A stretch of 64,000 nt of DNA from Phoronis australis (Eukaryota; Animalia; Phoronida). The notes below the pieces were generated by a model. The model had not been told where the DNA came from. It saw only the letters and a list, made by a program, of their open reading frames with translations, and made no database searches. The stretch spans positions 72,629 to 136,628 of the forward strand of contig NMRA01000751.1 in NCBI GenBank assembly GCA_002633005.1, in the 5' to 3' direction. The position numbers and the translations under genes are program-made. Below are positions 12,276 to 58,850 of the stretch, in pieces (the stretch's first letter is position 1; the number at the start of each line of letters is the position of its first letter).

Positions 12276-13170
12276 GCTTGCTGGCATCTATCCAGCATAA
12301 GGCATCCGCTGTTGTATCTCCAAATCCCGTTTATGGATAGTTATGAAATTTTGTCGATATGTTCCCATCATGGATGGCGCGGCATGGGCGAATTTTTGGA
12401 CACATCTGTCTTTTTACAGTTTTTAGTTTTTACGTTTCCCTCTGTAGTTTCAATGTTCGTGAACGGTTTTTAACGAAATTTGACAATTAAGTATCTATGA
12501 GGGAGATGATGCCACCTCTTCGTTTTCAGATGGATTTGATGTATTTTCTGCCACCTAGTGGCCATTTTTGTTGTTTTCAAGTCCGTTTATTGGCGTCTGC
12601 CTCTATCTCAGACAAACCACTCGGAGGAACTCTACGAAAGTTGTTATAAATGATGTGTTGCTTCTGGGAAGAGCGCTGCTGACAATTCTTTACTTACGGT
12701 TCTGACTGCGTTGACATTCCCTGTAGGCAGTTGTTTTTTACATCCGTGGCTGTATCTCCTAAACCCTTTGCATAATCATTATTAAATTTGGCAAGTGTAG
12801 TTCTGTGATAGACAATGGATGGCGACTTTTTGAGAGATCCAAGTACTGCTGTGTTCCCTTGTGGCAATTTTAGATTTTCCATCATCCTCGGTATCTTTTG
12901 AGTTCCTTGATAGATTTTCATGACATCAGGTGAATAGGTTTCTTTTAAAGATACGACGACACCCATTTGTAGATGGATTTGACATAATGTACGCTACCTA
13001 GTGGCCATTTTAAAAACTTCGGTCTGTTTTTGGCATCCTCCTCTCTATTGGCCAAACTACTCCAAGAATCGTCATGAAAGTTGGTATATTTGTTTCTACA
13101 GGAAAGACCATGGCTGACGATGATTTTTGGATGACTTTGACTACTGTGGCACACCTAGTGGAAGTTTTTG
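12180..13170 (+). mobile_element. HINE/DINE-1-like (Helentron-type non-autonomous) repeat with (TCTG)n microsatellite
   Basis: 5' hairpin tatgagcctacatatgtgggtgca, TCTG array at 12224-12272, recurring CCACCTAGTGGCCATTTT cores. Confidence 0.65.
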
Positions 13171-14650
13171 CTTTTTTGTGTCTGCATCTCTTTTTTTCCT
13201 GAACCCCAACAGGATATTTATTTCTACAAAGTCGAGGACATACTGTTATGCTCCCTAGTTCAATTTTATTTACTTACGTTTTACTCTGTATTGCTGGGAG
13301 TTCTTAAATGTTTAAAATTATGATTATCCCTTGTATCTGTGCTGTATGTGATGCACACAATTTCCTCTAATAGTTGATTTCCAGTTTCCTCTTTTTTGTC
13401 TCCTTTTCATCATTATTTTGACTTTATTCATGCAAAAACGTTTATTTCAGTTAAATTTTACATCACAAAAAATAGTTCTATCACACAAACCTATTTATTT
13501 GTGGAATAATACATCACCTGGAAAAGTTTCCTTTTTTGTTATTGGTCATTCAAAGCCCTGGCTCTTATTACTGTTGGTATTTTATTGTCAGTTTTTGGCA
13601 GAAAAATCATAATCCAAATCATACCACTTTCACCACGCCTAAAAACTGGAAGTGAAGTTTTTTTGAATGAGGCAAAATTGTCTCACAACTTCCTTATTTT
13701 GCACAGTTGCGATAATGTCTTAACTGTTATGTTAGATAAAAAAGTGCTGCAACTGCATAAACTGTAGTATTCTTCAAGTTGCGACAATTTCTGATTTGCA
13801 AAGCACAAGTTGTCCTAAATTTGTGGTTGCAATAATTTGTTGTTTTTGGAGTTGCACAAACTAAGCTTCAAATTCTTCAAGTCACTGAATGTTCAGCTGT
13901 ATAATTTCAGTGACAAGTCGATAATAATTTGCTTCTTATTTGTCAATCTTCAGAGTGTCAATGTCTATTTGTTTTTACATCACATGTAACTTCTATGTCA
14001 TATTTTCAACCCTGCCTGATATTTTTGTCTTTCATCACAATTACCATCTTTACTGTCAAATAGCCCTTGATACCACGGTCTTTAATTTCGTGATGGGCAG
14101 TGGGAAAGTGGTCTTGTCCCTTCGGTCACCTCAAGTTTCCCCATTCTCCTGGTCATGAATTGTTTTCATGGTAGGCGGTATAATCCATCCCTCAAAATTT
14201 GGAAGAGCTGTATGTCACCCAATTGCATTTTGACTCAATTTCTGCATTGAAGATCCGTACAGACTAGCATATTGAGGGTCACAACAGTATGTTCAGCCCC
14301 ACAAACCACAACAGCAGCAAAAAAGTATGACAGTTTGTGTTGGAGGTCTCCATATACTCGCGATATGAGGACTGTATCATTTTGTGCAATTGCGACAGTT
14401 TGTGGTCTAACACTACTCTCTTTTCACACTACTCTTGAAAGTAGCTTTGTGAGGATATCTTTTGGTTTGTCCTTATCTTTTAGCAAATCATTTAAAAAGT
14501 TACTAGTAAAAATTAATTTTTCCTAATGTAAATACTTCTGCTTTTGTTTCATGACTACTATGGCTGGATAAAAAACATGATAAGGGTGAAAGTCACTGTG
14601 TAGAAGATAACGTTTCTTATTGCAGATTTTAATCTGAAGCTCTATTTCAG

Positions 14651-14739
14651 GCTCGCAAAACATTTTTCACTCTGGCCTTCTGTGATAGTTGTCGACGTCT
14701 GCTCTTCAGTGGCTTCAGGTGTCAGACGTGTGGCTACAA
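14651..14739 (+). CDS. BRAF: Raf exon, C1/CRD first part ([30 protein letters not shown])
   Basis: tttcag| and |gtaagt, 89 nt, phase 0-2; near-identical to the RAF CRD. Confidence 0.95.
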
Positions 14740-15127
14740 GTAAGTACAATGAAGAAAGTCGATGCCAACTAGTTTCATTGCTCAAACAAAGTTTTCTAGT
14801 AAAATAGCATTCAGAAAATGAATCAGTATTCGGTTTTTAAGGACAACAAAATGAGCCGCAACCTAATTTTATCTACTATATAATCATTATAGATTTATAG
14901 AATACAAAACCATTGCCTAAAAACTGCTTAACTTGACATTCTGGACATTCCGTTTCCTGTATAACTATCAAGTCTTGCACAAATCTCTTTTGCTGCAACT
15001 GTTTACCTTCAAATGCGGCTGTTTGAAGCTCTTGCGGTCACACTACCATACCTATACTTTATTTTTGGATTTGTGACACTTTCCCTGCTTTGGTAGTTGC
15101 GTTAGTATAATCTGTTTGGTTGCACAG

Positions 15128-15217
15128 GTTCCACCAAAGATGTGCTAACCAAGTGCCAGCCCTCTGTCAGCCGAGTGGTGAAGATATCAGTGATATTATG
15201 AGGGAAAAAGTCAAACA
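15128..15217 (+). CDS. BRAF: Raf exon, C1/CRD second part (FHQRCANQVPALCQPSGEDISDIMREKVK)
   Basis: tgcacag| and |gtaagt, 90 nt, phase 2-2. Confidence 0.93.
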
Positions 15218-15277
15218 GTAAGTCTGACCATTATGTTTAAGGTCAACTGTTTTGTTGTGGTCACAAAATTTGCCTTT

Positions 15278-16410
15278 TTGTGCGCCCACATGTACATGTG
15301 GTCGCATATTGTTGTCAATCTGTACGAGCATCCGTGCGTCCGGTCGGTATCTCAAAAACGCCTGGTGGGATTTTGATGAAATTTGGCTCAAGGGTGTGGG
15401 TCAACACTTGAACGATTCAATCTGCCCTCCCTCTGGGAACAGGTGCCAAAGCCTTTTCTGCATTTTCATTTCGGGATGATATCTAGGGAACGGATTGAGG
15501 GATTTCAACAAAATTTGACGCAAAGATGTGTGATGTCAATGCGCTGGCTTGATTAAATTTTCGAGCAGATTCGATTAACGTAGCGTATTTTCTGTAGATA
15601 ACCCCATGGGCATGTATTCGGAAAATGAAAAATTTCAAGTGTTTAGTAACACTAAATAAAGCCCGGATGTTTATTCGGAAAAGGGGGGCGTGTAAGCGGA
15701 AAGTGACAGTTTTAATGACTTTGACATTTTTTTACTTAAAACTGTGTTTTTAAATTTTTTGTTAATAAATGAATAGTTCGCCAACGCCTTGTTCGTTTTT
15801 TATAAATGATAAATGCTCCATAAAATTGAATTTGTGACAAAAAGTTGACGCTTAGTGGGGTTTTTAAGAGGAAAATTTTCTGAATAAACGCCCCACTATC
15901 AGAACATTTGACACTAGAAGTTGTAACACCAACTAAACGCCCATGGGCGTTTATTTGGCCTAATTTTCCAAATAAACGCATATGGGCGTTTCACCTGGTT
16001 GGCCTATCTATACGAAAAATCCCAGTAGTGGCCATTTTGTTCTCGACAAGGGATTTTGAAGTGTTGTTTGGGGGAAGAGTGTTGCTGGATGATATCTAGA
16101 GAATCAATTGATGGATTTCAATGAAACTTTACATACGATGACCATGTGCCTACACCACTGTGCTCTTGAGGAGGCGCTTTTTCAAGTGTTGTGTTGTATT
16201 TATGCAAAGAGTGTTTCCGGATTATATCTAGAGACCTTAGTGACAGATTTAAATGAAACTTGACTCACCGGTATATGGTGACAATGCGCCGGCACCATTG
16301 GATTTTTGTGCTGATTCGAATACTGCAGCACTTCCTAGTGGCTCTTAGAAACATATCGTATGCGTTGCACTGTGGGTGCATGTCAACCCCCCAGCATTGC
16401 TCTCGTTGTA
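15278..16410 (+). mobile_element. HINE-like repeat with a nested MITE-like insertion (~15585-16020)
   Basis: 5' tgcgcccacatgtacatgtggtcgca hairpin; 3' end gtgggtgcatgtcaac...gcattgctctcgtt. Confidence 0.55.
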
Positions 16411-18907
16411 AATGTCCAAACTTAAGTTGTAATTTAAAATCTATGTTAAATTATTGATGAAAGTGAGGCGCTGTTCAGTGAACTGCGTTCTGTTATAGTA
16501 GAGGGTGACTGAAAAATTGTAAATGATTTATCAAATGGTTATGGAGGACTAGGCTATGCTGTTGTTTTAAAGTCTGTTCACTTTGGAAATTGTCTGAATT
16601 GAAGAAGTGTTTCTGATAAATGACTCGTTCGTGTTTGTCTTTGTGCTTGACATTTTAGAGAAACTCAATGCTCGAAGATAAACGTTTTATTGAGTTGCTC
16701 TACTGAAAGCTACAACAAACTTGGTCTATTTAAATGTTTGTGTAACTGCCATTAAAAATCTGACTTGAAGTCAAAAGCTGCTCATTTTGGTTGCAGTGGA
16801 TATGATCGACTCTTTCTAAAATGTTTTGGGAGGATCCAAACACTGCTGTGCCTACTAGTGACAGTTTTGTTTTTATGTTTGTATATTTGAAGGTCCTAGA
16901 TGAATTTCCATGAAAGTAACCTAATGGGTTAAACTTTCTATTTGGGAGACCATGATATCTTTTCATTTTTGATTGGGCTTGACATATTCAACACCACCTA
17001 GAGGCCTTTTTGATACTTTCGTGGTGCAGTCGTGGACGTATTGCAATACTTGGCATTGCTCTTGTTTGTGACGTTCTGGGGGGTGTATATCAATGTTAGT
17101 GAGACCCAAGTAAAAAAATCGCCAGTTGCTGGAAGGCCATTTTTGATTTAAACTAAAGCACAAGTTATGCTTGCCCCAGAGATGCTAATAACCTCTGCAA
17201 TTTTCAAGAGTCTAGCTTCACTTGATTTTCAGATGTGCCAGTTCAAATAGTGCTTTGAAGCCAGTTTTCATTATCCTTATGACCTGGCAGCGAGTCCAGC
17301 AACTGAATCGATGGCAGGTGGCGCTGTTCAGTGAAATAAGATAACATTTTTGATTGGTCTTGTGCCGTGAAGAAATTCAATTTTAGGCTATGAAAACTGA
17401 CTTGACTTATTGAAACCTGTCTAGAGTTTGTTTGCTCAAGCGTTGTTGTTGGGATTTTGATCACGGTCAAAATAGTGAAGTTTTATTCAATATTCTATTG
17501 TTATTTCTTCGAATTTTTGATGAACTGCTACGATGTTATTTTTTAGGCATTTATGATTATTTCCACGTTAGTTTTGACAGTATGTTTGCTGTACTTTTCT
17601 CAAAGAAAGAGTTTAATCGGAGAGAGGTTGATCAGCTGATTTCCAATATGGTGGAGTTTTCCCCCTGATTTGTGTGTTAGCCCGCGGCTTGTACGCTGTT
17701 TTCAATAGCCGTTTAGGCTACAAACATGATACGCAGAATAGTAACAGTGGCTATTGTTTATTGTAAAAATAAATTTAAAACGTCTCAACGAATTTCATTT
17801 ATAGACAATGATGACTTTCCGTAGGAGAATGCCTGGGATTTCCCCAACTATTGGGGGTGAGAGTGCACGTTATCTGTTGAAATTTACCAGTAATCCCAAA
17901 AACCAGTTACTTCTTCATTCAAAGTGAAAGTAACTGGTTCTGGTGCCTACCAGTTAACTTAAGATGGCTAAAATACACAGTTACTGTATGGGGGGGTACT
18001 TCCACGGTACTGGTGGGTGTACATGTGCTGCTAAAATATATATGTTTTAATCCAGATAAATAATAGCTTAGCAACTTTTAATCCAGATAAATAATAGCTA
18101 AGTCAATTCAAAGAGTGCTTATGTCTTTTATCCTTTTCTGAACTAAGTGTTTAGATACTTAGAAAAGTATCGAGTCCTCTGTCTCCTGTGTATTTTCAAT
18201 TAGTGGCTCTTGAAAATGACCGCACACAGTTCATTTTGAAAAAAAATGTTTTTTAGCATTTTTGACTAAAAATTGTAATACTTAAGAGAGTTCAAAATGA
18301 CATTTGTATGAAATTTCTTTTGTTAAAACAAGTGTTTGTGTATAGTTTGGTAAAATTTGATGGTTTTCCATTTTTGAGTTATTGACAATTAAAAATGGCC
18401 ACGGAACTAATGTGCAAATAATTGGTGATTTAGTGTCAGTTAAATGGCAAACTCTGTAAATTTGTAATAGAATACAGAAGTAGAACTTGTAAGTCAGATG
18501 TGAAAAGTTGTGGCAATTTCAGTAGCAGAAAAAGTCATTTCTATGAATGGTAGGATGTTAAAGCGTACAGGTTTGCACTGCGGAGTCCACCTTGATAAAC
18601 CTGTGCTTAATTAAAGTTGTAATTGAAGAATTGTTTTAAGATTCAGTGCCAATATTGATGCTTACTGTATTTTGCAGGGTTCCCAGCCCTTGGAAAATTG
18701 AGTAAACACTGCAAGAATTGTAATGGCCAGCTTTACTTTGTTGTGCAGCTTGAGTAAACACACTGTGAATCTACAAGACAGTTATCGTCCAATTAAAGTG
18801 TGCATCCTTAAATGTGTTGCAAGTTTTTTGTCACTATTTCAATGAAAAAATTGGGAACCCTGCGCAACGTGTGTGTCTGTCACATAATGTTTCTTTCCCA
18901 CGACCAG

Positions 18908-19103
18908 TATACTAGCCGGCGAGGAGAGCGACTCGGAGTACCCACATAATGACAGTGCGTACGTCTCACCCACAATGCGTCATCGCCAGTCAATTGTGAC
19001 TGCGACGACCCCACCTCCGACCCTAGCTTCAAGGGAGCGGTCCACGTCAGCACCCAACGTCTGCCTAAACAGCGTCAACCCAAATGATCCGCAGAGTGTA
19101 GAG
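18908..19103 (+). CDS. BRAF: Raf CR2 exon, variant A (ILAGEESDSEYP...RERSTSAPNVCLNSVNPNDPQSVE)
   Basis: ttctttcccacgaccag| and |gtatga, 196 nt, phase 2-0; RSxSxP 14-3-3 site equivalent to BRAF S365 / RAF1 S259. Confidence 0.92.
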
Positions 19104-19566
19104 GTATGAGGCTGTCACGTGACACGCTATGTGGTGCGGTCTGCCAGCATAGAATGGCCTCATTCATGCATGTACCTCCTGTTTGAGTTGCGATGATGAA
19201 GTAGCTCAGATAGGGAAGACATCAATTAGTTTGTCTACCATTGGTTCATTGCCAACTGTGCCCATGTGCATTATTCATCGTCGTGCACCTGGGTTTGCAA
19301 GTATTCAATTTCTACCAGTTTAAATAGCATAAGTAGCATACGTGCATGCATGGATAGACCATTCTGTGGTACATCTGCACTGTTCACTGCTCACTGTGAA
19401 CAGTTCAGTTATTGTTCCACGGTTTCCGCTTCCACTCGTTACCATTCTGTTTGCAGCTGCGCTCGCTCAACACACGCGTTTTCGCGTGTGGGCGTGCTCT
19501 GTGACTTCTGTGTGACCCGCATGCTTGTTTAGCCACTTTTGCTCAGTCTCATTCTCTGCCCCACAG

Positions 19567-19705
19567 ATGCCTAGCCACGACGCAGGCGCGGCCTGTGCCC
19601 AAACCGCGGGCGCCGCCCCGTCCGCTCCGGTCGTCTGAGAGGTCCAACTCAGCCCCCAATGTCACTCACTTCCTCGTTCAGCAGGGCGACGCTATCAATA
19701 TAGAG
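19567..19705 (+). CDS. BRAF: Raf CR2 exon, variant B, mutually exclusive with A (CLATTQARPVPKPRAPPRPLRSSERSNSAPNVTHFLVQQGDAINIE)
   Basis: ttctctgccccacag| and |gtagtt, 139 nt, phase 2-0 identical to variant A; carries a second ERSxSAPNV motif; open only in the alternative (not tandem) frame. Confidence 0.85.
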
Positions 19706-22700
19706 GTAGTTGGAGAAGGTCATCGTGTGCGTGTGTTTGTCTGTTTGGCATGCCGTGTCACTTTTTTGCACTGGACACGTGAATTGGGTTCTCGGCATCT
19801 TTCTATAACTTGACAGACAAGTAGCTCTTGAAGCACACCCTGTATTGCAACATTTTGCTTCTCTGCCTGCATTTTTTTGGAAATTACAACAAACTCATGA
19901 AAAGTTTTGTATTTCATCTCCATGCACGTCCTGGAAAGTAATATTTTCAGAATATCACTTTGTTGCATGATGAGCATCAAAGAGAAGATGCACTTAATAA
20001 AATGTTTTGAGGCATTTTTATCGGAAGTTGTTACAGTTGTCCTGGATTTTTACTTGGATAAATGAAAGTTTGCCAAGTATGTCACTCTGTCATATTATAA
20101 AAAAATTATCAGCGTTTTTTTGTAACTGATCAAATTTCTTCTCTGATTGACATGAAATTTACACACAACATGCGTTTGGTCGAAATCGAGCTCAAGATGG
20201 CGCTGTGACGGCATCTTATGGAATTTTCATTTTGGGAGGATTCGTCAGAAATTTTGTGTATAGATAGATGTTGTTACGCGTGACAAGAGGAGGTGTGTAT
20301 CCTATTATGTTATGGCTTATTATTACCGATTTTATTTGAGATCTTTTGATGACTGAAATTTGGTTTAATCTCGTCAGGAGCTACTAAAAGTGTAAGTCAT
20401 CAGTGTCCTGCCTTCTGATTGGTTGATTTGTTACGCCATACCTGTGGCATATTTTGATGTTGTTGGAACGTTGCTCAGGCTTGCAGTAGCCATCTAAAGA
20501 TTCAAGAACAACCTGGTTTGTGGATCTTTCCTGTCATTCGCTCTTCACTTTTTGCTCGATTGACATGAAATTTGCATACAACATATAACTTTTCAGTGAT
20601 CGACAAAAGATGATGCTATGGCAGCAATTTTTTAAATTTTTTGATTTTTGTGGAGTCGTAGGTATGGTTTGAGGGGTTTTCCAAAATTTGGTCATGTGTA
20701 GAGCTCATCAAGCGCTACAAGATATTCTGGATTTACTTGAGATTTTCTGACGACTGATCTTTCCTTGTTCTCTTGTCATATTGTCCTCTTACAGTTTCTT
20801 TATCGTGTTTGACGACAGTGTTGGCGATAATGGCAATTTTGTTGATGATGGCAATGATAGTGGTGTTGCCATTGGTTTTAACAGCGCCATGATCCTTAGC
20901 CTCTTCTGTGTCACGTGCGTTGGGTGGTGTGATTGTCGTCAGTGGCGCCGTTCTTGTTGGCTTCGTCTGTTTTGATTCTGGTTTTATTGTAGGCGACATC
21001 AATATTTGCGGCTTCGTAATCTTTGTTGTCGGAGTCCGCGTTTTTTTCTGTGTTGTTGTCGGTGTTGCTTTCGGCATTGTTGACTGTGTTGTCGGCGATG
21101 CCATGGTTTTCAGTATCGTCCTCTACATCGTTGTTGGTGTTGTGGACTTGTCATCTGAGCTTTTGACGAGACACATGCTGTGTGTAAATTTGATCAGACA
21201 ATTAATGTGACTTATAGAATGCTGATAGTAAACAAAGTAACGTTCTTGACATTAGTGCGTTTTACATTAAGTCCAAATCTTTTGAAATGCCTATTATATT
21301 TTGATAATACATTGTGAATAAATTGAAAAGCTTAAGTTGTGCACTTTTATTTGCCTCGGCCTAGTATTTCCGTCTTTAGAAGAGCGTAGCTGATAAAAAT
21401 TATAGTTTCCACAATTATACTACTTCCTGAGTGTGGATAGACTAGACAACAAACTTGGCTTGGGTAGTTTTACTTCTGATTCTTTAACCGTGTGCATTGA
21501 GTGAGTGCCTTAGCCATTGATGCTAATGACTTCCAACTTTCATCACTAATGTTCGGATTTGTCTTCTCACTTCTCTGTTTGTGAACCGGACGTTTTCTGT
21601 TATGCTGCATTGCGGAAAATATGACGAATTGCATCATGGGATTGGCTGAATGTTACGTATTCGCTTTTAACGTTTGCCTTACAGATCAACTCTTTGATAT
21701 CTACTACCAACCCTGCAGTGCGCAATTAATAACACCACTTCTGGTCCATTAAAGCTACTGCGCTGATGTAGGATGTCTTTGCATATATTTCTCGCATGTG
21801 TCATTGCCGGTCAACAAACTCCCTAGATCTAACTTGTCGCCAACATAACCACTATACATCTGTTCTTGGAGGCGTAGTTTACTGCACGCTAGGATACAGT
21901 CGCACTGCTGTTGGAGCTGGGTGACTTGACCTGCTGGTGACCTTGACATCCCATAATTCCTAATTACTTACAACCTTGCCTTTCCCATATTTCTCTCGTT
22001 TTTCTGTTCTGTGTCCTGCTTCCTTTCAGTTTCAGTGTTTTCTGAATCATTTAGTGAAGACATTTTTCCTGTTTCAGTAAATGCATAGACACTGTTTAAT
22101 AACCCATTGATTATTAGTTGAAGACACTGTAAATAGCTACCATTTCATCTTACTCTAAATTTTCTCTTTCACCATTGTCCCTGTTAACCACAATGTCTCA
22201 ACCCATGATCTGTAACTGGATGGTTATTTGCACTTGTTTTTCCAATCTGGTGTCTGCTTATTACACTGCACCATACCCATGAGTTCAGAACGTAACCGTT
22301 TCATTTTGATATTTTTAATAACCGCCTTTTCAAATACCTAATATGTGAAATCAAATATCTTTACCAGTCTCTTCTATCAAAGTGTTAGCTTGAGTAAAGT
22401 GGTGTAATTGATTATATTTCGTTAGCGTTTCGATGAAACTTTTGTTATTTTGTGCCCAGTGTTGTCAGTCAGGTGAGTAGTTGCTATGGTAACTATGATA
22501 ACTGCCATAGACACAAAGTTCTACCTAATGCCATTGGGAACAAGATTGTCATGAGAAACTTTGATTACCAAAAGCTGTCTAAGCTCTCTTAACCACTTTG
22601 TTATGGTTTAAGCTGGTGTTCAGTGTAATTATGCTTCCACACAATTTTTTTGTGGGGAATATTGGCATCTTGCCATATGTGCTTTCTATCCGTCATTGCC

Positions 22701-22959
22701 GTTGATTTTGTTTGTTCGGAATTTACTTCTTAACAATGATGGATCCGGTATGTTGATTACTGTCAAAATGGATTGACAGATTTTGATTAAACATGTCTGA
22801 AGTCTGTGGGGCCGATTTGCCACCACCTGACCGGAGGTCATCAGCTCAAATTGATTTTCAGACAGTTTTAAGTACCTTATTACATATTTCTATCTTGTTG
22901 AAATTTCATAAACCACTCATTAGACTTATAGTGAGTGCATCAAATGATTATATATATGT

Positions 22960-24020
22960 ATTCATATGTGGGCGCATTATGTCGTTGTCCTCGTCCATCC
23001 GGCGTCTGTCGCTCTATCTTCAAATCCCTTTGATGTATGTTCATGAAATTTGCATCTGTGTTCCTTTCATAGATGGGACAGCAGGAGCAAACTTTCGGAT
23101 GCATTTGACTACCAGTGTGTCCCCTAGTGGCAATTTTTAAAATTAAATTTTTTAGGCTTACCTCTCTATCTTCAAAGGTCCTCAATGCATTTTCATAAAG
23201 TTTGGCAGATAGGCATCTGTTAGTGAGATGATGCTATCCTCTCGTTTTCGGATAGATTCGAAGCATTTTTTGCCACCTAGTGCCCATTTCTACTGTTTTC
23301 AGGTCCACACCTCTATTGACCAAACCACTCTAAGGATGATTGTGAAAATTGGCATTTATGTTTGTCCCTGCTGTGAAGAGGACAGCTGACGATGATTTTA
23401 TGATAACTTTGACTAAAGTGGCGCCTCTTAGTGGTAGTTTTTTGCGCCCATTGCTATATTTCCTAGACTCCGAAAATCTTTATTAAATTTACCAAGTGTA
23501 TTGGTATGAAGTTGACAACGGACAACTATGACTTTCAGACGGATCCAATGTACACTGTGTCCCCCTATTGGCACTTTTATATTTTTCATTTTCCTCTGTT
23601 TTTCTGACGTTCCTTGATGGATTTTTATGAAATTTGGTGAATAGCTTTCTAGTAAAGAAATGATGACGTCTGCCAGTTTTCGGATGGATTTAACGTATTT
23701 TGTGCCATCTAGTGGCCATTTTTGTTCTCTTCTAGTCCATTTTTGAGGTCTGACCCTCTATCAGCCAAACCACTCTAAGAATGATTTTGAAAATTGGCAC
23801 TTAATCTCCGACAATTAAAAAGGATGGCTGATGATGATTTTGGGATGACTCGTACATACTGTGGTGCCTCATAGTGGTATTTTTTGTGTCTCCAAGTATA
23901 TTTATATGAAGTTGACAACCGACAACAATGACATTTGGATGGATCCGGATACCACTGTGCCCCCTAGTGGCAAATTTTTCGTTACCCTCTGTATCTTTGA
24001 AACTTCTTAACAGATTTTTG
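22960..24020 (+). mobile_element. HINE-like repeat, same family
   Basis: atgtgggcgcattatgtcg...ccgg head and repeated CCCCTAGTGGCAA / CCACCTAGTGGCCA cores. Confidence 0.65.
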
Positions 24021-24462
24021 TGAACGTTAATATACAGTATTTTGTATAATTATTCTGAATAAGCCGTTTACCTCAAGACAAATGCAATTATTCAACCTCC
24101 TTCGCGATGACTGAATGACGTTGCACCTAAATTTAGAATCGGTGATACCTGAGAACTGCTCACTGAGGGCACTTGCTGGGGGAAATGATCACTTCATCGT
24201 TCTAGAACTAACTGGAACAAACTAGTTCTTTTCGGCAAAGTATTCCTTTAAAATCTTAGACCTTTATGGGTTGCTTACATGCTATAAGTCTAAATTTTGT
24301 AGCTTGCCTTTTGTGATATAAGTTGTGTGGGGGCATATTTATCATTGGCAATAATACAGAAAGATGTATTTTTGTATTTATGCATGAGAGAACTAAATTT
24401 TGGTTCGACCAAATTATTAGTTTTAATTGTGTATTTTATTTACTGAATGCCTTCCATTTAAG

Positions 24463-24529
24463 GACATGATTGCAAGATTTGCGGAACCCAGGGGATCGGC
24501 CACACTGCCTGTAGGGTTGAACTCAGCAG
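24463..24529 (+). CDS. BRAF: Raf hinge exon (DMIARFAEPRGSATLPVGLNSA)
   Basis: ttccatttaag| and |gtaacc, 67 nt, phase 0-1; required to bridge phases; position matches the short BRAF DLIRDQ exon. Confidence 0.8.
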
Positions 24530-26280
24530 GTAACCTCTTACTGGATCAGATGTGCTATTGTACATTCGGGAAAGGTTATTGTTGTAATATGATGACTTGT
24601 GGAAGAATCAGTTTTGTTGCTGTTTTTGAATTCATGAAATTGTTCCCTATATACTAAGTTGAAGTATTCAAGCAACAATTGACATCCTACAAACACTGTT
24701 TATAATGTTTTGACATTTAACCACCGCCTCACCATTCACTGGCCTTTTTTGACCTCAGTGTATCACGGAGTCATCTTCCCAAAAAGAGATAATCTTTGAA
24801 TTGATATATTTTGCTCAGACCTGAGTAGACTTCAAAAGGTAGTGATGCTGGGCAACTGAAGTGATTGGCTAGTCTTTCTAAGCCATCAAGTTTTAGTAAA
24901 AACTTGTAACTTGACTGTCGTTAATAATCATTCCTTTAGAATGTGATTACAGGTGTCGCATATAAAGATGTTTTGTTAGTTCCAACACTCTGCCCTTTCA
25001 CAGTTTCGTGCCTTGACATTTTCCCGGCCTGTGATGTGACTTTTTGCGGGGTTTAAGGCAGTCAAACTGATGATAAACTATGTAGTGGTATGGTGCTTTG
25101 TGAAACATTTGAACTTTGATTGATGCATTGTTAGCAAGTACTACTACGTACTGTAACCTCAAACCTGGTAACATGTCTTGAATAAAAAGGAAGCATTCGG
25201 AGAAAACTGAATGTGTAGAGCAGAGTTTTGGTTTTTAACAAGATTTGTGCCGAGTGTAAATGTCTGTAACTACTGCTGAATCCAGCAAAGAACTTGCAAG
25301 TGTTGCGTATGTCTGTCTGAAGCTGCTTTGTAGAGTGTACTAGCAGTGGACATCTTGTACATTTGTGTGCGCTTGTCATACGCTTTGATCATTCTTTGAA
25401 CATAAAGAAATGTTGTGTCGTGTTGGCACTCGGTATTTCCAATTGCATGGTATGACACTTTCCCTCTGGAGGCAGTGAACCCAGGATATCCCAACTGACA
25501 GTTAACTTCCTGTGTCAGCTGTACTGACTAACCACAACTGAGAGGTGTGGACAAGTCACTTTCAACAAAAACTTTCTTCAATTTGCTAGTGTTGTGTTTC
25601 TATTGTCTCCATGTCTGTTGTGTCAGCTGTTTGGCCCATATGCTTGTTAACGTGCTGTTCAACAGAAGCAAGGAGGTCTCTTTGTATTTTCCAGCATTGT
25701 CCAAGTTGTTAAAAACCAACTGTGCAATACAGTTTTACAACTTGGTTATATTTGTCCAGTAAACAGCGATTGCAAGTGAATACTAATTTACTCGTCTACT
25801 TTTCTGCTCCTTGTTTGGAAAATGACTGACATACCTTCTTGAAAACGGATCTTTTCAAATCACCTGTTTTTTTTTTGCAAAAACCGAACAATATTTTTCA
25901 TTTTTGTTCTCCAAGAAGGTCAACATTTTGAAAGCTCAACGATGAGACCAAAGTGGCCCAATGATTCCTAAGCAACATAACAGCACACAGGACAATAAGA
26001 ATTGTTCATTATACTATTTGTGTGTCATTTTTCAGTCACTTAGTCAAAAGTGTAGATGTGAATCGCTGTGCTTTAGGGGCAACAAAATGGTTTCCAGTGC
26101 TGTCATATTGTATCCGGTTTTAAGCCAAAGCAGTAAGCTGTCAGTCAGTTGGGAATTGGTTGCAGTATTCCGGTTACAAGTCATTTGGCTGACCAAATAA
26201 GAAGTACAGAAGTGACCTCTATGTTGAACGCATGTTGTTGTTGTTCTTGTTGTACTCGTCACTGTTGTGTGTTGTTACAG

Positions 26281-26370
26281 AGTTTACGCGACACTCATCC
26301 AAGCGACTACTCAGCGACAGCAGCACACAGTCAATACGAAATCGGTTCCCCAATGCAACAATCCACCGAG
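26281..26370 (+). CDS. BRAF: Raf probable cassette exon (EFTRHSSKRLLSDSSTQSIRNRFPNATIHR)
   Basis: UG-rich tract then ttacag|, donor gag|gtatac, 90 nt, symmetric phase 1-1, no stop; skippable without frameshift. Confidence 0.65.
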
Positions 26371-27001
26371 GTATACGTCAGAGCGAGCTTTGACCTATGA
26401 AATATTGACCTCTTGTCTTTTCGACTTCTGAGTGTCTGTTATTTTCTTGGTGCCTTGTTCAAATATTTTTTTATTTTTTATGGATTTGTTGAAAATTGTT
26501 TTGTCTGACATTTTAGTCTTGCATTCTTACTGTCACATTCTATGTTTTGCTGTTGGAATGTTCTTGATTTGTTTGTTTATCTTTAAACTCAGTGGCTATA
26601 TACTCATTTAATGCTTCGGGCCCAGCTTGATGGTCCAAGCGCATTCACTGAGGTTTGTCAGCAGTAAGATACCAAGACAACGTTTGCAGCTGTCTTTCAG
26701 TCTTTTCATTTAAGTACATTTTTGAAAAATCTTGCACTGCTCTGAAATGTTCTTCTGCGATACTGTCAAGCTTGCAGGATGATAACCTTTCACTGAATGC
26801 AACCACAGAAGTCAACAGGTCGCCCGCTTTGTTTTGATATTCGTTTGCTATGTGTACCTCTTTCACTCCGTAATACGTCGAAACCGTTGTCACCTAAACC
26901 ATCTAAGTATCCGTTTGTTGTTGATTGTGGCTTATGTCTGTTGCTTTCGAAACATCGAGTGTTCAACATTGTTAACTGTCTTATTGTATTGCTGTAACTA
27001 G

Positions 27002-27144
27002 GTCAGAATCTGATGTCACTGTCATCCACACCACAGAGCCCTTTACATAGTCCTACTAAGGGCAGTGCTTCGCCCCCTGTAACTGTAAAAAATGGCCAAA
27101 GGTCAAGGTCTGGGTCTGCGGAATCCACATCAGCCAAAAAAGTG
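27002..27144 (+). CDS. BRAF: Raf Ser/Pro-rich hinge exon (GQNLMSLSSTPQSPLHSPTKGSASPP...RSRSGSAESTSAKKV)
   Basis: aactag| and |gtaagt, 143 nt, phase 1-0; SP sites typical of the RAF hinge. Confidence 0.88.
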
Positions 27145-28334
27145 GTAAGTTTTTGTGTCTCGTTTTTTTTTCATCTCTAGCTTATCCGTCGTAACAAAAA
27201 GGGGCAAAACTTGATGTTAATAGATGAGAGTGAAGCTGTTATTTCTTTGTGCTGTAACACGATCTATTCAAGGGCATGGTCACTATGTCTAGTTACCTAG
27301 GTGCCAAATACCAGAATGGACCGGATAGCGATTCTGTGAAAAACTCCAGTGTCGAATATCAAACATTCTTGACATTGTCTGCTTATGGTGAACTGCTTGT
27401 TTGCATTGCGTATTACATAAGCTGTGTGTCAGTTCTTGCCAGTGAAAATGTGCTAGTTGTTTTTGCCATTATTTTTAGGATCCATTTTGTCATAAGTGAC
27501 TTTATAATTTGTGTGGTATTGAGTCACTGACTTGGAGATGGAAACGCGAGCTGCACCGCTCACAGCAGGAGGGTTGGGATTTGTCTCCACACGCCTTCCT
27601 CATGAGAACAGGGTTACAATATACTTTTATTGACAATGCCATAATGCATACTTTCACCAGTTGCGCTTCCGTAGTGCATTTCAATTGGAAAGTGGTGACA
27701 TAGTCTCCCTATTGAACAAGTGCGCAACTGCTGGTGAACTGATGTGTGAACATCCGGCAAAATAGGTATAAATTCAGTACCACACTCATGACCCAAGTAT
27801 GAAGAGTCTGTGTCTCAATAGTGCTGGCGTTTTCACAATTTCTTAATCCGACTTAGGCATGCTCATTGATGTCATTTTGGATTAATTAATTCTAATTATA
27901 AAGATGTGCAAGTAGTCCTGGGGACCCCTCGAATTTATTACAAGACTTATATAACCTAAAAAGGACTATTAATAAGGATTTGACCAAAGGCAGACTTGGC
28001 AAAGATGAGCAAGCAATTATCGTGTTATCAGCTTTCAGCATTGGGTTCGACAAATTTCTGCCACTTGATTTTCCACAAAATGGTTACTAATTAAGCCTGA
28101 ACAATTTATAACATGTCCCAAAATCTCTGAATTTCTTTTTAAGGATGAATATGAAGTTTACATGCAACCCAGCCTTCATGTTTTCAGTCATAGTTGAATG
28201 TAAGTGTAACTCACACCTGGCGGAAATAAATGAAGTTTGTACAAAACTTGTCATGCCAAGATTTACTGAACAGTTCAATCATACATTTTTACTTTGTTAT
28301 CTGTGATATTAGTGCAATCCTCGATCCATTGTAG

Positions 28335-28531
28335 CGCACTCGGCGTGACTCAAATGAGGATTGGGAGATCAACTTCAATGATGTTCAGGTGGGTCCCCGA
28401 GTTGGTTCGGGCTCATTTGGGACCGTCTACAAGGGTCACTGGCATGGGCCAGTAGCCATCAAAAAGCTGAACGTGCTTGATCCTACCCCAGAGCAACTGC
28501 GCGCCTTCAAGAATGAGGTTGGTGTGCTGAG
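28335..28531 (+). CDS. BRAF: Raf kinase exon: N-region, P-loop, VAIK, alphaC ([12 protein letters not shown]...[20 protein letters not shown]...FKNEVGVLR)
   Basis: ttgtag| and |gtgagt, 197 nt, phase 0-2. Confidence 0.97.
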
Positions 28532-28980
28532 GTGAGTTCTAGTTTGTTAAGAACTGGTTTGGTGTCGTTTTTGTTGGCTGACGAAAGTGTGAGCACAGTC
28601 TATTTTGTAGGGTGTGGTCTGCTTAAGCATTGATGGAGTCTGTTATGTCAAGGGATGTAGTCATGGAAATCTGAGTGTGGCCTTTTTCATGAGGCATCGT
28701 GTTGGAACGTTGGACAGAGTCTGTTTCGTCAACAGCTGTTCACATTGGAAATATTGGCTGAACTTGTTTTGCGGTGTTGTTTTTATTTCTATGTTTGTTA
28801 AGTCTGTTTTCCCCTAGTGAATTTGATTTACAAAATGTGGATATGAACTTGAACATGCTCAATTGTAGTATCATATAGCAGCTATGCCCTTCACAAACCA
28901 AGTAGGTACACGTGTATGCGCAATAGCACAAACGAGGGATTTTCCCGGATACGTGACATTTTAAATAATTTCTTTTTCAG

Positions 28981-30760: not shown

Positions 30761-31968
30761 GTATCCTTTGAGGCCATGCACTGGTCTATAGCTGTAAGAT
30801 TGGATTTGTTCACTTTAAACTAGGCACCTTTAATTTTGTGTTTTTTATGGCTGAAAAACAGATGTTTGGGATCTTTGGTTGAGATAGACTTTTTGAAGTT
30901 ATTATTAGTTTTTAATCATATAAAGCAACAAAATTCCTTGTTTTTTTGATTTTATTGCAAATCGCCAATTCTCGGGCATAATCTGCTGAAATTGAGGATA
31001 ATGTCTACCATACGCTTAAAATACTAAATTGATATTTAACATGTGACATTTTGCTCAGCAGCAGAGCGTTCGGCTGCTATTATGGTGCTGGTGTGTTTGA
31101 TTCCACGCTATTGCTAATTTCTGTACAAATATTTTTCTCACCGAGTTTTGTTTTTCGCCCATAAGTGTATCTACAAAACCCACTGCAGGATCTTTATTAA
31201 ATTTAGTAAGTGAATTTATGTGAAGATAACAGACGATGACTGTCAGGCGGATCAAACGGACGCTGTGCCCACAAGTGGCAATTTCAATTTGTTGTGTTTT
31301 CCTTCGTTTCTCTGAAGTTCCTTGACAGATTTTATGAAATATGGCATGATCCCGTTCTTGGATGGAGTGTACGTTTTTGCGCCATCTAGTGGCCATTTTT
31401 ATGATATAAATAAATAACCCTAAAAGCGCACCATTTGCGATGCATTGGTGGGCACATTTCAACGCTCCGCGTTGCTCTTGTTACAAAAATACCTCACATT
31501 TTGCAAGTTGATTTTTCATAGAAACCAAACTAAGATACTAACTGAAAATTCCTAACAGCGTTTTTTGAGGTAAGTGGTGAAGTTTTCATTAGAAAGGTTT
31601 TATTAAAATCGACCGAAGGATTATTTTGCTGTGAATGTACCTTTCTTAAAAATAAAATTTTGACTTCAAAATGTGTTAACGTAATAATAATAACGGCACA
31701 TAAATATTAAATATTATTTTTATAATCCCCGATCTTTGTCCTTTCGGAAAACATATAATTTTACCAGTTGACGGAGTCTGGGTTTTTGATATATGAGATA
31801 GAATTGAGACCATTAAATAAGGTTTGATATAACCTGAAGATGAGTGCTTACAAATGGGTAATTCTGCTCTTGTGACTTTTGACGTAAGCTGATACTTTGA
31901 AAATTATATTGAAACACCCCATTAAAAAGCCATTCCATCGCCTAGTCTCCTTAACTCGCTCTCCTCAG
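30761..31968 (+). other. U12-type (minor spliceosome) GT-AG intron of Raf
   Basis: 5' site GTATCCTTT; branch sequence TCCTTAAC at 31948-31955, 13 nt before the 3' splice junction. Confidence 0.93.
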
Positions 31969-36887: not shown

Positions 36888-39537
36888 GCTCTGTCGATTC
36901 TTCTGTGCACAGAATGTCAAACTATATAACATACTCTGTGGCTCTTGAGGTCTGTTAAGTAAGATTTCGAACTGCAGAGTTGAGCATGCAGAAGGGTGCG
37001 TTCAGGGGCTAGAGGACAATGTTACTAATGTCTTATTATTACATTCTCTCTAATAAACGCCCACATTTGTACGAGCACCCCCTACTCAATTTCAGACTGC
37101 TTGAATAAATACCCCCTGTGAACATTCGAAAGGGAATTGTGCTGTAAAGTGTTCAATGTTTCATCTACTTTCAGCAGTACTGAATGGAAACCTTAGTCGC
37201 TAGCTTTATTGGTTGTCACTTTGAGCTGTAAAGAAGCACTCCCAAAACGTTCCTTTTGAGGTGCACTTGCTAAGGCAAATACCATAAGAAATTGTGGCAA
37301 GAACTTAAGAAGTCTCAGTGATTAAGGATGAGTGATGAATGTGGGTCAGAGGTCACCAGCTGCTGACAGCTTGAATTTATATTTCAGTATTAGAAAAGAA
37401 CAATTATGGAATATATTTGAAAATTAGCCCATCCAGGTTTGCAAAGTTGAAGGTGAATTGGTCACTCATTTCTGGAAAATAGAAATCAGGGTCTTTAGAT
37501 TCCGTTTTTAAATTGAATGACATTTCTAATGAACAAGTTCCGAAACAAAATTCATCATTGTAGTGTCGGGGAATCCACCAACTCGGTTTACTGAAATTAT
37601 TCACACTTGTGAAATGTTTTGTTTGCCAGCTTTGACTGGTTTTCTTATTAATGTTCCCCAGAATCGCTTAATAACTCCGTGTAACAGAGGTTTGTAGTCG
37701 ATTGTTGTTAAGTGCTTGTTTCCATATATTGTTGCAAGCAGCATGAAAAGATTGTATTAACGCATGTCTGTTCCTGTGATCACACGGTTTTGGAGGAAGG
37801 AGGCATTACGTAGTTATGTGTCACCTGAGTGAATTAAATCTAGGCCGTGTTCTTTGGAGGCAAGAAACTCATGAGAAAATCTTGTTTGATAGCATGTTTC
37901 GCTTGCAGCTGATGGTGTTATCTCGTGAAGACTTGCGTGATGTGTTTTTGCGAGTTTCTTGTGTCTGCAGAGTACAACCTGTATTTTACTACAAAAGGAA
38001 AGTAATAAGTATTGTCACAAAATTATAAAGATCACAGCTATACTTAAAACATCATCACTACGTGAAAACAATGAAATATTTTGAGTGGAAATAGCAGACA
38101 GATGAAAGGTGGGGCATCTTGTACTAATGTGACATTCATTTTGAAATTATGTATAAATTGTGCACTGGCAATACATCCCATACCCTGCGCTTACTTAAAG
38201 AAATCCACCTGCGATGCCTTTAATCTAAAAGACTCCGTGTTGCTAGCAATAGCTCATCCAAAAAGAAAGCTAAAACTGGCACTGACTTTCACTCAACTGT
38301 TGCATTTTGAATGTTAGTTATCTCTGCTGGCCTAGTAATTTGTCTCTGGCAATGTTGGGGTTTCAAATTATTCATTTTCTGTTGTCGACTGAACCTGTAC
38401 CATACTATGTATTAAACATGTGTCAGTCCTGCTGCTAAATTATATTTAAATTATATTATTTTATTATGCTGCATTATTGAACTTATGACTGATGAAGATA
38501 AACGTGTGGCCGGTTTTATGACTGACAGCAGGCATAACCTGAAATATTGCATATTTTGCCAGCGTGCTTATTGTCAAATGGTAGAGAGTCGGACTTGGTT
38601 CTTGCATTTTTTATTATCTTAAGAAACGTTTGATCATCAGTGCATATCAATTGTAACCACGGAATTGGGATGACCCAAGAGAATCTGGTTTCAACAGTGT
38701 ACAATTGTGGGCTAAATCTATTTTCTTTAAAGTTTTGCCCATCACTATAGCGTTATTCTGCTAGTTGTATTCATCCATAAGCGGCTTAATGAAGTTAGTA
38801 TCCACTTTTCAATCACAGTACTTAACCTTCACCAAACCCTGGATGGTACAGTTATGTTATTTTCATATGCATGTTTTGGTTTGGCATATTTAATGATAGT
38901 TGATCACTTATACCTTTGAAGCTACAGTTCTGTACAGTATTTGTTTGCCCTGCCCAAGTTTCTTTGACCAAAGCCTTCTGAGAAGTACGAATGGATATTT
39001 AATACCAACTGAACTGTCACTTAATTATTTTCAATTCCACTAAATTTTGGAGTTAGTGTCACAGATCCTGTCACAGGACATTTTTTTTGTCAAAGGTTTA
39101 AGTGACATCATTTTATAATCAAAGCTATGCTATGTATCTCATTAAATTCCATCGAGCAGTGGCGACTGGCTGTATGGAGTGATATCAGGTTTTGGACTGG
39201 ACGAGGGAAAGGCTTCAGTTTTGTACACAATGTTTCAGTTTTGGCCAAGATGCCTGCAGTGATTAAAGTTTGAGATGGATTTGACCTTTTTGGCTCCCTC
39301 TCGTGGCGATTTTTATTATGCACCCACGTGTACATAATGTGGGTGCATGTTGCCATCTTCTGTGTCTGGGGATCGGCTGATATGTTCTTTTGGAGCTGAC
39401 GAAGGATGGCAAGTTTCGGAGGGATTTGACTACTGCTGTGCCCCTTAGTGGCAATTATGTATGTTGGGAATTGTTTAATGGATTTTCATGAAATTTCTAA
39501 AATAAGTTACTATTAATGAGACCATGATGCCTTTTCA

Positions 39538-40650
39538 TTTTTATGCGCCCACATATTTATATGTGGACGCATTATGCCGTCATCTCTGTCCGTCCGTCCG
39601 GCCGTCCGTCCGGGCGGCGTCCGTCCGGCGTCCGCTGCTCTATCTCCAAAACCCTTTGACATACATTCATGAAATTTGGCACATATGTTCCATTCATGAA
39701 TGGGACGGCATGTGCGAACTTTCGGATGGATCCGACTACCGGTGTGCCCCCTAGTGGCAATTTTAGTTTTTTACGCTTACCTTTGTATCTTCAAAAGTCC
39801 TGAACGGATTTTCATGAAATTTGGTATGTAGGCACCTAGTAGTGAGATGACGCTATCCTGCCGTTTTCGGATGGATTCGACATAGTTTGCGCCACCTAGT
39901 GGCCATTTTTANCCAATAGGGAGCACAGCAATAATCAAATTCCTACAAAATTTGTGGCCAGCCGTTTCCACATGTGTAGGAAAACATCGCAGAATTTCAC
40001 AAAAATCCTGTGAAGGATTAAAGAGATGCATTGTTATGGAGATGGCAATAGCAGAGTTTGATTTGAGGTGCTCATAGTGGGTGTCCAATTTTGGCATCCT
40101 TTCTAACTCTGCAATGTGGTTTGAAGAATTCTTCTGGAATGCTGTACTATTGAAGGAAAACAATGGATAGCGTCAACTGCTGCTACACTGTGTGGTGGCA
40201 GTTTTTTGCCTTTACCTCCATATCTAACAAATTAGATGAAGGAGCTTCATAAAACTTTGAGTAAAATTTTATCCAGGTCATCCCATTCTTGGACAGTTCT
40301 GATTATTTTGTACTGTGCCCTCTGGTGGTAATTAAATTAATTTGCTTTTGTATATCTGCTAAACTGAAGAATTATGGCAAATGAATGAGTTCCTATTAAT
40401 AAAGTGACCACGACTGTTCTTGATTATTGGATGGATCAAAGTACTGCAGTGCTCGTAGTGGTTATTTTTTTACAGCTATCATAATTGCTAGCAAGCTGGC
40501 CACGTTTTGGGTGTTTACACAAAATTTTAAGTTCATTATTGTTGCTCAGTCTAGTATGTGGAAATGTTTGAAACATGGGTACCCCCGATATCTTTGCCAT
40601 TTGCGATGCACGTGGTAGGCGCATATCAACGCTCTGCATTGCTCTTGTAC
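39538..40650 (+). mobile_element. HINE-like repeat with both termini visible (spans an N at 39912)
   Basis: 5' ttttatgcgcccacatatttatatgtggacgcat palindrome and (TCCG)n; 3' ggcgcata sub-TIR plus caacgctctgcattg hairpin and ctcttgt. Confidence 0.7.
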
Positions 40651-52879: not shown

Positions 52880-53116
52880 CTGAAATTGGAATTATGGCTT
52901 ATTAGCACACACTCAACAAAACTGCATAACATAAATTTGATTCAAATATTTTCATTTATCCATCAATTTAATTTTACCCAAAGATAAGTGGGAATACATT
53001 AGCCTGATTATGTTTCCTGGTGGCCATGCGCCAAAGCCAACAGTTATCCACAAATCGGATCATGACTTATCTCCTTAGGGGCATAGCAAACTCCTTAGCA
53101 AACACTTTGATAAATA

Positions 53117-54538
53117 ATGAAACATATTCATTTGACTGAATATAAATCGGTAAATAAAACAACAAGAATGGATCAACTGAAATTTGAAATTTTCGGAGGT
53201 AATATTCCTCAACATGAAGGCATAGAAGCCTGTACCAAGTTTCTTAGTCAACGTAATAATCCTAATGTACCTACATCTTTTATTCGCTCTCTTCTTGAAC
53301 ATGTACTTACCATGAATCATTTTACCTTTAATAATAATCACTATCTCCAAATATTAGGCACAGCCATGGGAACTAGGGTTGCTCCTACCTTTGCTAACCT
53401 CTTTATGGGAAATCTTGAAAACAGCTTCATCAAATCCTGCTCTGAAAAACCCCTTCTCTGGCTAAGATACATTGATGACATTTTTATGATATGGACCCAT
53501 GGTCCACAAAAATTAGATGTATTTTTAGAAAATATTAACAAATTTCACCCTACTATAAAGTTCACTCATGACATTTCTCAAAATAAAGTCTCATTTTTAG
53601 ATGTAACTGTCACTCTTAATAATGATAAACTAGAAACTGACTTATTCTGTAAAGAAACTGACAAACACCAGTATCTGTCATATCACTCGTGTCATCCCTT
53701 TCATTGCAAGAAAAGCCTTCCATATAGCCTTGCCCTAAGAATTCGACGCATTTGTTCAGAAGAAACTTCCTTTAATAACCGTTTAAAAGAACTCAAGTAC
53801 TATCTAATTCAACGTCATTTCCCCTTACATCTTATACACAAACAGTTTGACAAAGTCCGCTCAATTACTCGAAATGAATCTTTAAGAACTAAAACTAAAG
53901 GCAATACTACTAATAGAATACCTTTCATAACTATGTTCAATCCATGTTTAAACGGAATTAGCCACGTCTTCAAAAAACATCTTTCTACACTGCATATTTC
54001 CCCTCAAATGAAAAACCTATTTCCTCATCCCCCTATAATTTCTTGGAGAAAATGTAAAAATCTAAAAAATTATTTAGTTAAAGCTAATATCGACAATATA
54101 CACCAAACTGACAAACCTATTGGCAACACACAATGTAACAAAACTAGGTGTAAAATGTGTAACTTCATCAACGATAGCACTTTTTTCCAGTCTTCCCAAA
54201 CCAATGAAAACTTTGAAATAAAACATTATTCTGATTGCACCACCAACAATATTATTTACCTTATAACTTGTAAAAAATGTTCTATCCAATACGTAGGACA
54301 AACTCAACATAATCTACAAACTCGGTTTCGTAATCATAGATTTAACATAATACATAAAAACATTTCTGATACTGTAGGTAATCATTTCAATTCCAAAAAC
54401 CATAATATTCAAGATCTTTCTGTACAAATAATAGAAAAACTCCAACACCCCAGTACCCCTCACAGACTTAAAAGAGAACAATATTGGATAGACAAACTGA
54501 ATACAATAGAACCTCATGGATTGAACATAAAAACTTAA
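53117..54538 (+). CDS. Penelope-like RT (partial) + GIY-YIG endonuclease ORF
   Basis: GTAMG and RYIDD RT motifs; IIYLITCKKC..YVGQT, RFRNH, REQYWI..L.T..P.GLN endonuclease motifs; first ~28 codons come from the inverted repeat and flank. Confidence 0.9.
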   Translation: MKHIHLTEYKSVNKTTRMDQLKFEIFGGNIPQHEGIEACTKFLSQRNNPNVPTSFIRSLLEHVLTMNHFTFNNNHYLQILGTAMGTRVAPTFANLFMGNLENSFIKSCSEKPLLWLRYIDDIFMIWTHGPQKLDVFLENINKFHPTIKFTHDISQNKVSFLDVTVTLNNDKLETDLFCKETDKHQYLSYHSCHPFHCKKSLPYSLALRIRRICSEETSFNNRLKELKYYLIQRHFPLHLIHKQFDKVRSITRNESLRTKTKGNTTNRIPFITMFNPCLNGISHVFKKHLSTLHISPQMKNLFPHPPIISWRKCKNLKNYLVKANIDNIHQTDKPIGNTQCNKTRCKMCNFINDSTFFQSSQTNENFEIKHYSDCTTNNIIYLITCKKCSIQYVGQTQHNLQTRFRNHRFNIIHKNISDTVGNHFNSKNHNIQDLSVQIIEKLQHPSTPHRLKREQYWIDKLNTIEPHGLNIKT

Positions 54539-57809: not shown

Positions 57810-58850
57810 CACCAATGCTGTCACATTTTGTCACTAGAGGGCACTGTGGTTTTTGGATCAGTTCGATACGTGGCACCATTTGTCGCTGGTTCCACAGAAA
57901 CCCACCTTTCAAATTTTACAAAGCGCCTTTAAAAGGTGAAGATAATTCAGCCGCAGACGCATTAAACAAAATCCCCACTAGGGGGCAACACAGTAGTCGG
58001 ACCCATCCGAAAGTCAATGTCAGTTTTGGCCTTCTTATCGGGAATGCATCTGTAAATTTTCACAATGATTCTTTGAGTTATATGGCAGATAGAGAGGCAG
58101 ATGCCATAAAACAGTCACAAAAATAACAAAAATGGCCACGAGGGGGCGTAAAATCCATTGAATTCGTTCTAAAATGAAACAGCATCATTGCCTCTTAATT
58201 AAAAACCTATTTGCCAAATTTTTTGAAAATCCATTAAGGAACTCTGAAGATATGGAGGAAAACGTAAAAAAATAAATTGCCACTAGGGGCACACCAATCG
58301 TCGCATTGGTCTGAAACTTGTCATCACCTGTTGTCAGCTCCAAAGTAACATATCTGCCAAATATCACATGTTCTTGCAAAGGCTTAAGGAGATACAGCCA
58401 CAGACCGAAAAAATCCCAGAGGCGCCACAGTAGGGAAACCCATCCAAAAATCCACATCAGCCGTGGTCTCCTCATTAAGAATGCACCTGCATATTTTCAT
58501 AATGAGTCTTCAAGCGATTTGGCAGAGAAAATTAGCCGGTTACGTTGGCGCAGATTCGTCAAAGCCGTTCAAAAATGGAAAAATTACGTTTACTTAGCCA
58601 TATTTCATGCAAATCCATCCACAAATTCCTAAGATACAGAGGAAACCATGAAACAATAAATTTGCCACTAGGGGGCACAGAGGTCGTCGGATCAGTTCAA
58701 AAGTCATCGTCATCTGTCGTCAGCTTCAGAGACACGTCTTCCAAATCTTATTAAAATCCTATGAGGGGTTTAGGAGATACAGCTTCAGACACCCGATGCC
58801 CAGACAGAGATGACAGCAATATGCACCCACATAAAATGTAGGCGCATAAA
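57810..58850 (-). mobile_element. HINE-like repeat, reverse orientation
   Basis: Reverse complement of the head (tttatgcgcctacattttatgtgggtgcat) at 58821-58850; repeated ttgccactagggg cores. Confidence 0.65.

Follow-up and report, generated by a model that had tools for sequence, protein, structure and literature searches.

Two tandem CR2 exons, likely used as mutually exclusive alternatives, in a lophotrochozoan Raf gene

The window analysed here, a stretch of 64,000 nucleotides of Phoronis australis DNA, contains a Raf gene on its forward strand, modelled from position 2217 to 36887. The model comprises a BRS-like N-terminal part, an RBD, a C1 domain, CR2, the kinase domain and the CR3 motif, distributed over 16 exons when one of two CR2 exons, named A and B hereafter, is included. 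It remains open to the stop codon with A (708 aa) as well as with B (689 aa); the first coding exon lies outside the model. The RBD, C1, CR2, kinase domain and C-terminal 14-3-3 motif follow each other in this order, as found by tblastn of named Rafs and in the open model. A quick tree, computed from 32 rows, placed the protein with lophotrochozoan Rafs (SH-aLRT 98), adjoining Lineus and Tubulanus but outside this pair (88, not starred). By sequence comparison, the gene is a lophotrochozoan Raf. Upstream of its first modelled exon, a unit of 41/82 nt is tandemly repeated in two arrays (671-860 and 1349-1601). Elsewhere in the window, a 474-aa ORF at 53114-54535 has reverse transcriptase and GIY-YIG domains (Pfam), and is what we take to be a Penelope-like retroelement. 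Two adjacent ORF pieces at 61285-62121 had no Pfam match, and look by eye like what is presumably a broken LINE endonuclease/RT region.

The two CR2 exons lie between a constitutive exon at 15128..15217, which encodes the end of the C1/CRD and has a phase-2 donor, and a constitutive exon at 24463..24529, which has a phase-0 acceptor. Exon A (18908..19103, 196 nt) carries a CR2 motif of the RERSTSAPNVC type with the full RxRxxS consensus. Exon-only ORFs of other animals have the same ends as A, which designates A as the ancestral exon. Exon B (19567..19705, 139 nt), the duplicated copy, follows after an intron of 463 nt (19104..19566); relative to the CR2 serine (position 0), which it retains, it has kept Arg at -3, Ala at +1 and Pro at +2, and is devoid of the -5 Arg and the +5 Cys. 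All of these are on the forward strand. A and B are both bounded by AG and GT, enter in phase 2, leave in phase 0 and are 3n+1 long. As a consequence of this length, just one exon fits the frame when the canonical acceptor is used. Either exon alone reads in frame between the exon ending at 15217 and the one starting at 24463, A and B joined at their canonical splice sites produce a TGA at 19636-19638, and skipping of both shifts the frame, with a stop at 24467-24469, immediately in the next exon. The preliminary description of this locus, made from the letters alone, had given the same distance, ends, lengths and phases for the two exons, as well as the two aberrant outcomes, and our coordinates agree with it throughout. 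It had further called exclusive use obligatory. Exclusive use is supported by the frame and, as reported below, by annotated Lineus isoforms and five more loci; its obligatory character holds for the canonical acceptor only, for AGs at 19547 and 19586 are open and would place B in frame after A. The acceptor at 19547 scored 0.47, against 2.57 for the one at 19567. The acceptors of B and A are themselves middling, ranking 74 and 206 among 432 intronic AGs.

The CR2 exon of the window's Raf gene is present as two tandem homologous copies. The local protein alignment of A and B has a score of 61, which was reached by none of 5000 shuffles and supports the exon duplication proposed earlier; the DNA score, 29, exceeds those of all 500 shuffles (maximum 28). 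As had been claimed, the motif ERS[T/N]SAPNV is found in both exons and B is 19 aa shorter. The distance from motif to donor is 14 codons in each, and the pattern RS.SAP has only two occurrences in the three forward frames of the 9.2-kb interval 15218-24462. DNA identity between the copies is 22/27 in the motif and 17/42 from there to the donor; within the motif there are three synonymous changes, and a single residue differs, at -1, a variable position. A conserved motif next to a diverged flank is to be expected where a coding motif is under selection. The two lengths (196 versus 139 nt, and 220 versus 463 nt in locus L010, see below) depart from the similar length that serves as a common criterion, and no strict requirement, for predicting exclusive exons. 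No third phase-2/0 exon passed the filter in 15218-24462, the filter being weak, since it also missed the donors of A and B. Use of B as an alternative first exon was rejected, there being no in-frame ATG within its open frame.

We then looked at other animals, the preliminary description having suggested a search of related genomes with B. B-type exons were found in Lineus, in Paralvinella and at five metagenome loci. In the RefSeq annotation of Lineus longissimus Raf, isoforms X4 and X5 are A-type and X1 to X3 are B-type, the swap occurring between the same flanking residues; the B-type segment of X1 to X3 is 205 aa long and has its own RSTSAPNV. RefSeq models of this kind usually rest on RNA-seq. 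In the annelid Paralvinella, the annotated gene model P0012 uses a B-type segment, which matches best with the B copy of metagenome locus L012 (score 106, versus 63 with the A copy of the same locus); L012 is closest to Paralvinella in several exons. In the models of both animals, B immediately follows the upstream exon. A metagenome scan with a four-row alignment gave 79 pattern matches, which came down to 16 Raf CR2 loci. A followed by B in tandem was present in 5 of the 16 (L007, L009, L010, L012 and L014; L007 came to light through a profile built from B copies, the other four through the motif), 7 reach the kinase exon with one CR2 copy, and 4 are too short to tell. The A-B introns of the five measure 157, 71, 69, 636 and 465 nt, respectively, and their exons all are 3n+1 long, with AG and GT ends and phases 2 and 0. 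These properties are kept in six of six loci when the window is counted, and joining A to B leads to a stop inside B in five of the six. The dN/dS estimate proposed earlier was run on B between L009 and L010 and yielded 0.083 (dS 0.41, Fisher p 1e-14); the value for A was 0.046. Judged by this codon comparison, B is under purifying selection between L009 and L010. We conclude from frame, annotation and conservation that A and B very probably are an exclusive pair in actual use.

The swap was not seen in several other groups. Two CR2 motifs within one protein were found in 0 of 268 full-length Raf records, and there was no CR2 swap among the Raf cluster members of chelicerates, crustaceans, Folsomia and Nymphon that were inspected, nor in Owenia, all four Raf models of which are A-type. 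Of 44 mollusc Raf records, again without a swap, 41 show the signature of A; the remaining 3 represent Pomacea's only form. A search with B alone returned no matches, protein searches gave no close relative of B, the 44 proteins matched in a profile search were all A-type, and Pfam has no family for either exon. Other annotated routes to a CR2-less Raf were noticed on this occasion: Portunus isoform X5 is without the CR2 segment, and Convolutriloba isoforms X4 and X5 are without a CR2-like motif that is present in X2.

B copies are 46 to 205 aa long and fall into groups, L012 and Paralvinella forming one, and L007, L009, L010 and L014 another. The window's B scores 32 to 55 with other B copies, to which it is alike only at the core, and 71 to 82 with several A copies; with Lineus A it reaches 82, more than the 61 obtained with its neighbour A. 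As the resemblance among the B copies from the window, Lineus and the two groups of metagenome loci is limited to the core, a single origin of B is a candidate reading at most. The proline-rich PKPRAPPRP of B had been called SH3-ligand-like in the preliminary description; as a novelty of B this did not hold, since PR(x)APP is present in A-type exons of Lineus, Owenia and Tubulanus.

Around the CR2 serine, aligned A and B copies differ consistently at positions -5, -3 and +5, to which the preliminary description had not pointed. RxRxxS together with Cys at +5 was found in 10 of 10 A copies and in 0 of 8 B copies. The -5 Arg is missing from seven of the eight B copies and the -3 Arg from four (L007, L009, L010 and L014); L007 keeps Arg at -5 while it has lost -3, and has also lost Ser at -2. 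His occupies +5 or +6 in seven of the eight. The window's B keeps R-3, S-2, A+1 and P+2: by motif comparison, the R-x-x-pS-x-P core with a small +1 residue is present in exon B, and the AKT/SGK consensus RxRxxS is absent from it, as it is from all eight B copies. Among 87 distinct CR2 contexts, -5 Arg was found in 68 and +5 Cys in 70. Its absence in 19 of the 87, which belong to single-copy Rafs, indicates that loss of -5 Arg alone is tolerated. The earlier proposal of two differently wired CR2 modules gains support from these consistent differences, so far as aligned residues can tell.

Phosphorylation of the CR2 serine at its AKT site is inhibitory. As stated in passages of two sources (10.1101/2022.05.10.491335; PMC12402067), 14-3-3 autoinhibition depends on the CR2 phosphoserine as its anchor, and this residue is dephosphorylated by SHOC2-MRAS-PP1, a phosphatase with a preference for a small residue at +1. 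The 14-3-3 motif is given as RXXpSXP in an excerpt of PMC5042004; a passage of PMC10603377 gives RXRXXS/T as the consensus of AKT and SGK, and reports phosphorylation of S259 by AKT, with an effect there called activating. Form A, with its full RxRxxS, would thus be phosphorylatable by AKT/SGK-type kinases and by PKA, setting the 14-3-3 clamp. Form B would retain R-3 and P+2 of the 14-3-3 core, together with the small residue that the phosphatase prefers at +1, and through loss of -5 Arg it may be less open to AKT-type inhibition. In the four relatives whose B is without -3 Arg, it may be partly de-repressed. To the uncoupling of form B from AKT we give about even weight.

Alternatively, A and B may be exclusive and yet near-equivalent at the serine, what matters being linker length or other sites, or a dial operated through NMD, or a DA-Raf1-like, kinase-less RBD-CRD product of transcripts that contain both exons. 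The residues kept by the window's B, the spread of B lengths and the both-in stop inside B at five of six loci would fit. We nevertheless find this unlikely, in view of the loss of RxRxxS and +5 Cys from every B copy and from no A copy. Two tandem CR2 exons, mutually exclusive and specifying two Raf forms with differently controlled autoinhibition, are in our view the likely explanation.

How one exon would be chosen was examined in the intron between them. It contains TGCATG three times (intron positions 64, 240 and 244) and one further GCATG (416), so that the (U)GCAUG expected in the intervening intron for Fox-1/Rbfox control is present. TGCATG was first spotted by eye and then tested: it occurs in four of five independent A-B introns (L009, near-identical to L010, was excluded), with 6 copies seen versus 1.76 expected (P about 0.01, a post hoc value; no single intron is significant), and is among the three commonest shared hexamers of these introns. 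The L012 intron has GCATG only. According to passages of PMC2777236, Fox-1 proteins promote inclusion of an exon when bound downstream of it and repress it when bound upstream, and they control the exclusive pairs of FGFR2 and egl-15. By this positional rule, a TGCATG between A and B is placed to favour A over B. A protein of the Rbfox family bound at UGCAUG in this intron could then steer the choice, favouring A and repressing B; we propose this tentatively, as somewhat less than an even chance. In L009 (intron at 272-342) and L010 (2468-2536), TGCATG lies at +8, and introns of 71 and 69 nt are short enough for steric exclusion to be plausible.

The A-B intron of the window also folds well (z about -5.5, 0 of 150 shuffles as stable), as did, almost to the same degree, 2 of 12 control intron windows (z -4.3 and -4.5). 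On the forward strand, a predicted helix pairs 19098..19113, which covers the donor of A, with 19545..19559, in the pyrimidine tract of B and including the alternative AG (acceptor 19547). Among 289 pairings of a donor with an acceptor of this gene it ranks first (-22.4 kcal/mol; 9/3000 shuffles), the runner-up (-21.8 kcal/mol) involving the same acceptor; when the folded segment was cut at 19560, the probability of the helix dropped to 0.04. It was absent in all four relatives tested (P 0.08-0.83), so that a conserved donor-acceptor helix, of the docker/selector or the steric type, was rejected; the predicted helix is at most lineage-specific. The choice may be assisted by this local fold in the window, and by the 69-71-nt intron in L009 and L010. 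Two other elements of the predicted fold are a perfect 8-bp hairpin at 19471-19490 (pair probability 0.99), which precedes the acceptor of B by about 80 nt, and a stem pairing two TGCATG motifs (19162-19175 with 19342-19355).

Three same-species RNA runs (runs X1, X2 and X3) and one contig set were mapped to 12300-28700; about 18-19% of each run was read, repeats being dominant. Of 192 RNA joints, the 15 displayed were repeat-derived, and none was a splice junction of A or B. Sense-strand depths in runs X1, X2 and X3 were 0.62, 0.55 and 0 for the bin of A, and 0, 1.35 and 0 for that of B, no higher (0-1.35 overall) than in repeat-free intron bins (0-1.65). An interspersed repeat family at 12421-13560 and 22992-24024, with copies at 31190, 39411-39911 and 57975-58728, was heavily covered by reads from its other copies. 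In this lineage B might be silent or a decaying remnant, whatever its role in relatives: no junction was displayed, its bin was covered in one of the four RNA sets, protein searches gave no close B relative, and the predicted helix hides its pyrimidine tract. A remnant would hardly be expected to show an open frame with intact splice sites, a motif kept through synonymous changes beside a flank that is 40% identical, and the family residues PRAPP, +8 L and +9 V, which A has changed; together with purifying selection on B in relatives, these make silence improbable.

We return to two exclusive exons in use. Both-in and both-out transcripts would have premature stops upstream of further junctions, and may be removed by NMD. 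This is a known route for exclusive pairs that are not multiples of three, according to passages of PMC6071210. Exclusion by NMD is not airtight, in view of the two alternative AGs (19547 and 19586), from which B would follow A in frame; B serving through one of them as an optional second CR2 cassette, in a Raf with two tandem 14-3-3 sites, is very improbable, given the phase-2 acceptor and 3n+1 length kept in six of six loci, the direct joining of B to the upstream exon in the Lineus and Paralvinella models, and the single motif per protein throughout the 268 Raf records.

A paper describing a duplicated RAF CR2 exon was not found in listings and abstract starts (subscription journals were outside the scope), in line with the preliminary description, whose author knew of no exclusive pair in RAF genes. 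BRAF, RAF1 and ARAF are absent from the supplements of PMC9741552 (an 84-row subset of human events) and PMC5740500, a weak negative. The duplicated CR2 exon is real and conserved, and its swap apparently undescribed. The closest relatives of such an arrangement are exons 8b and 9b of vertebrate B-raf, described in passages of PMC3008692 and PMC3189609 as B-raf specific optional cassettes, where hinge splicing tunes S365 phosphorylation, autoinhibition and PKA sensitivity. Those are optional in-frame exons, beside CR2 and unrelated to it, whereas in the present gene duplication and swapping concern the very exon that encodes CR2, B being 3n+1 long and replacing CR2. Homologous adjacent exons of which one is used are also known from FYN exon 7a/7b, FGFR2 IIIb/IIIc and egl-15 5A/5B (passages of PMC9741552, PMC2777236 and PMC3189609); the FYN pair likewise alters kinase autoinhibition (PMC9741552, in part), and those of FGFR2 and egl-15 are under Fox-1/UGCAUG control (PMC2777236, in part). 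In contrast to these three, the Raf pair swaps a short phospho-motif in a variable linker, differs widely in length and owes its exclusivity to the frame.

The CR2 serine is the central RAF brake and a RASopathy hot spot. Noonan and cancer variants of RAF1/BRAF CR2 (S257, S259, P261) weaken 14-3-3 autoinhibition, as passages of PMC12402067 and PMC5042004 state. The B copies of L007, L009, L010 and L014, without -3 Arg (and in L007 without -2 Ser), resemble them; unlike these mutations, B would be a conserved, switchable isoform, and that of the window keeps -3, -2, 0 and +2. A more far-reaching scenario is doubtful, namely that a single early-lophotrochozoan duplication gave rise to an Rbfox-operated switch between a fully braked and an AKT/PKA-uncoupled Raf, in some worms a conserved, tissue-selected and partly de-repressed natural counterpart of the Noonan CR2 mutants. 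RAF splicing near the CR2 serine has been described as a vertebrate B-raf acquisition. If the exclusive pair is true, exon duplication would have given animals (annelids, nemerteans and the window's lineage) an autoinhibition module that can be switched. B copies would be natural variants for testing the roles of -5, -3 and +5 in kinase input, 14-3-3 binding and SHOC2-PP1 release, and the pair would bear on research into ERK in the embryos, oocytes and regeneration of spiralians, which assumes a single Raf form.

Finally, a 90-nt candidate cassette exon in phase 1/1, with good splice sites, was noticed at 26281-26370. It resembles a KRH.SDS segment that is optional in the Raf isoforms of Lineus, Owenia and molluscs and, by protein order, occupies the slot of vertebrate BRAF exon 9b.
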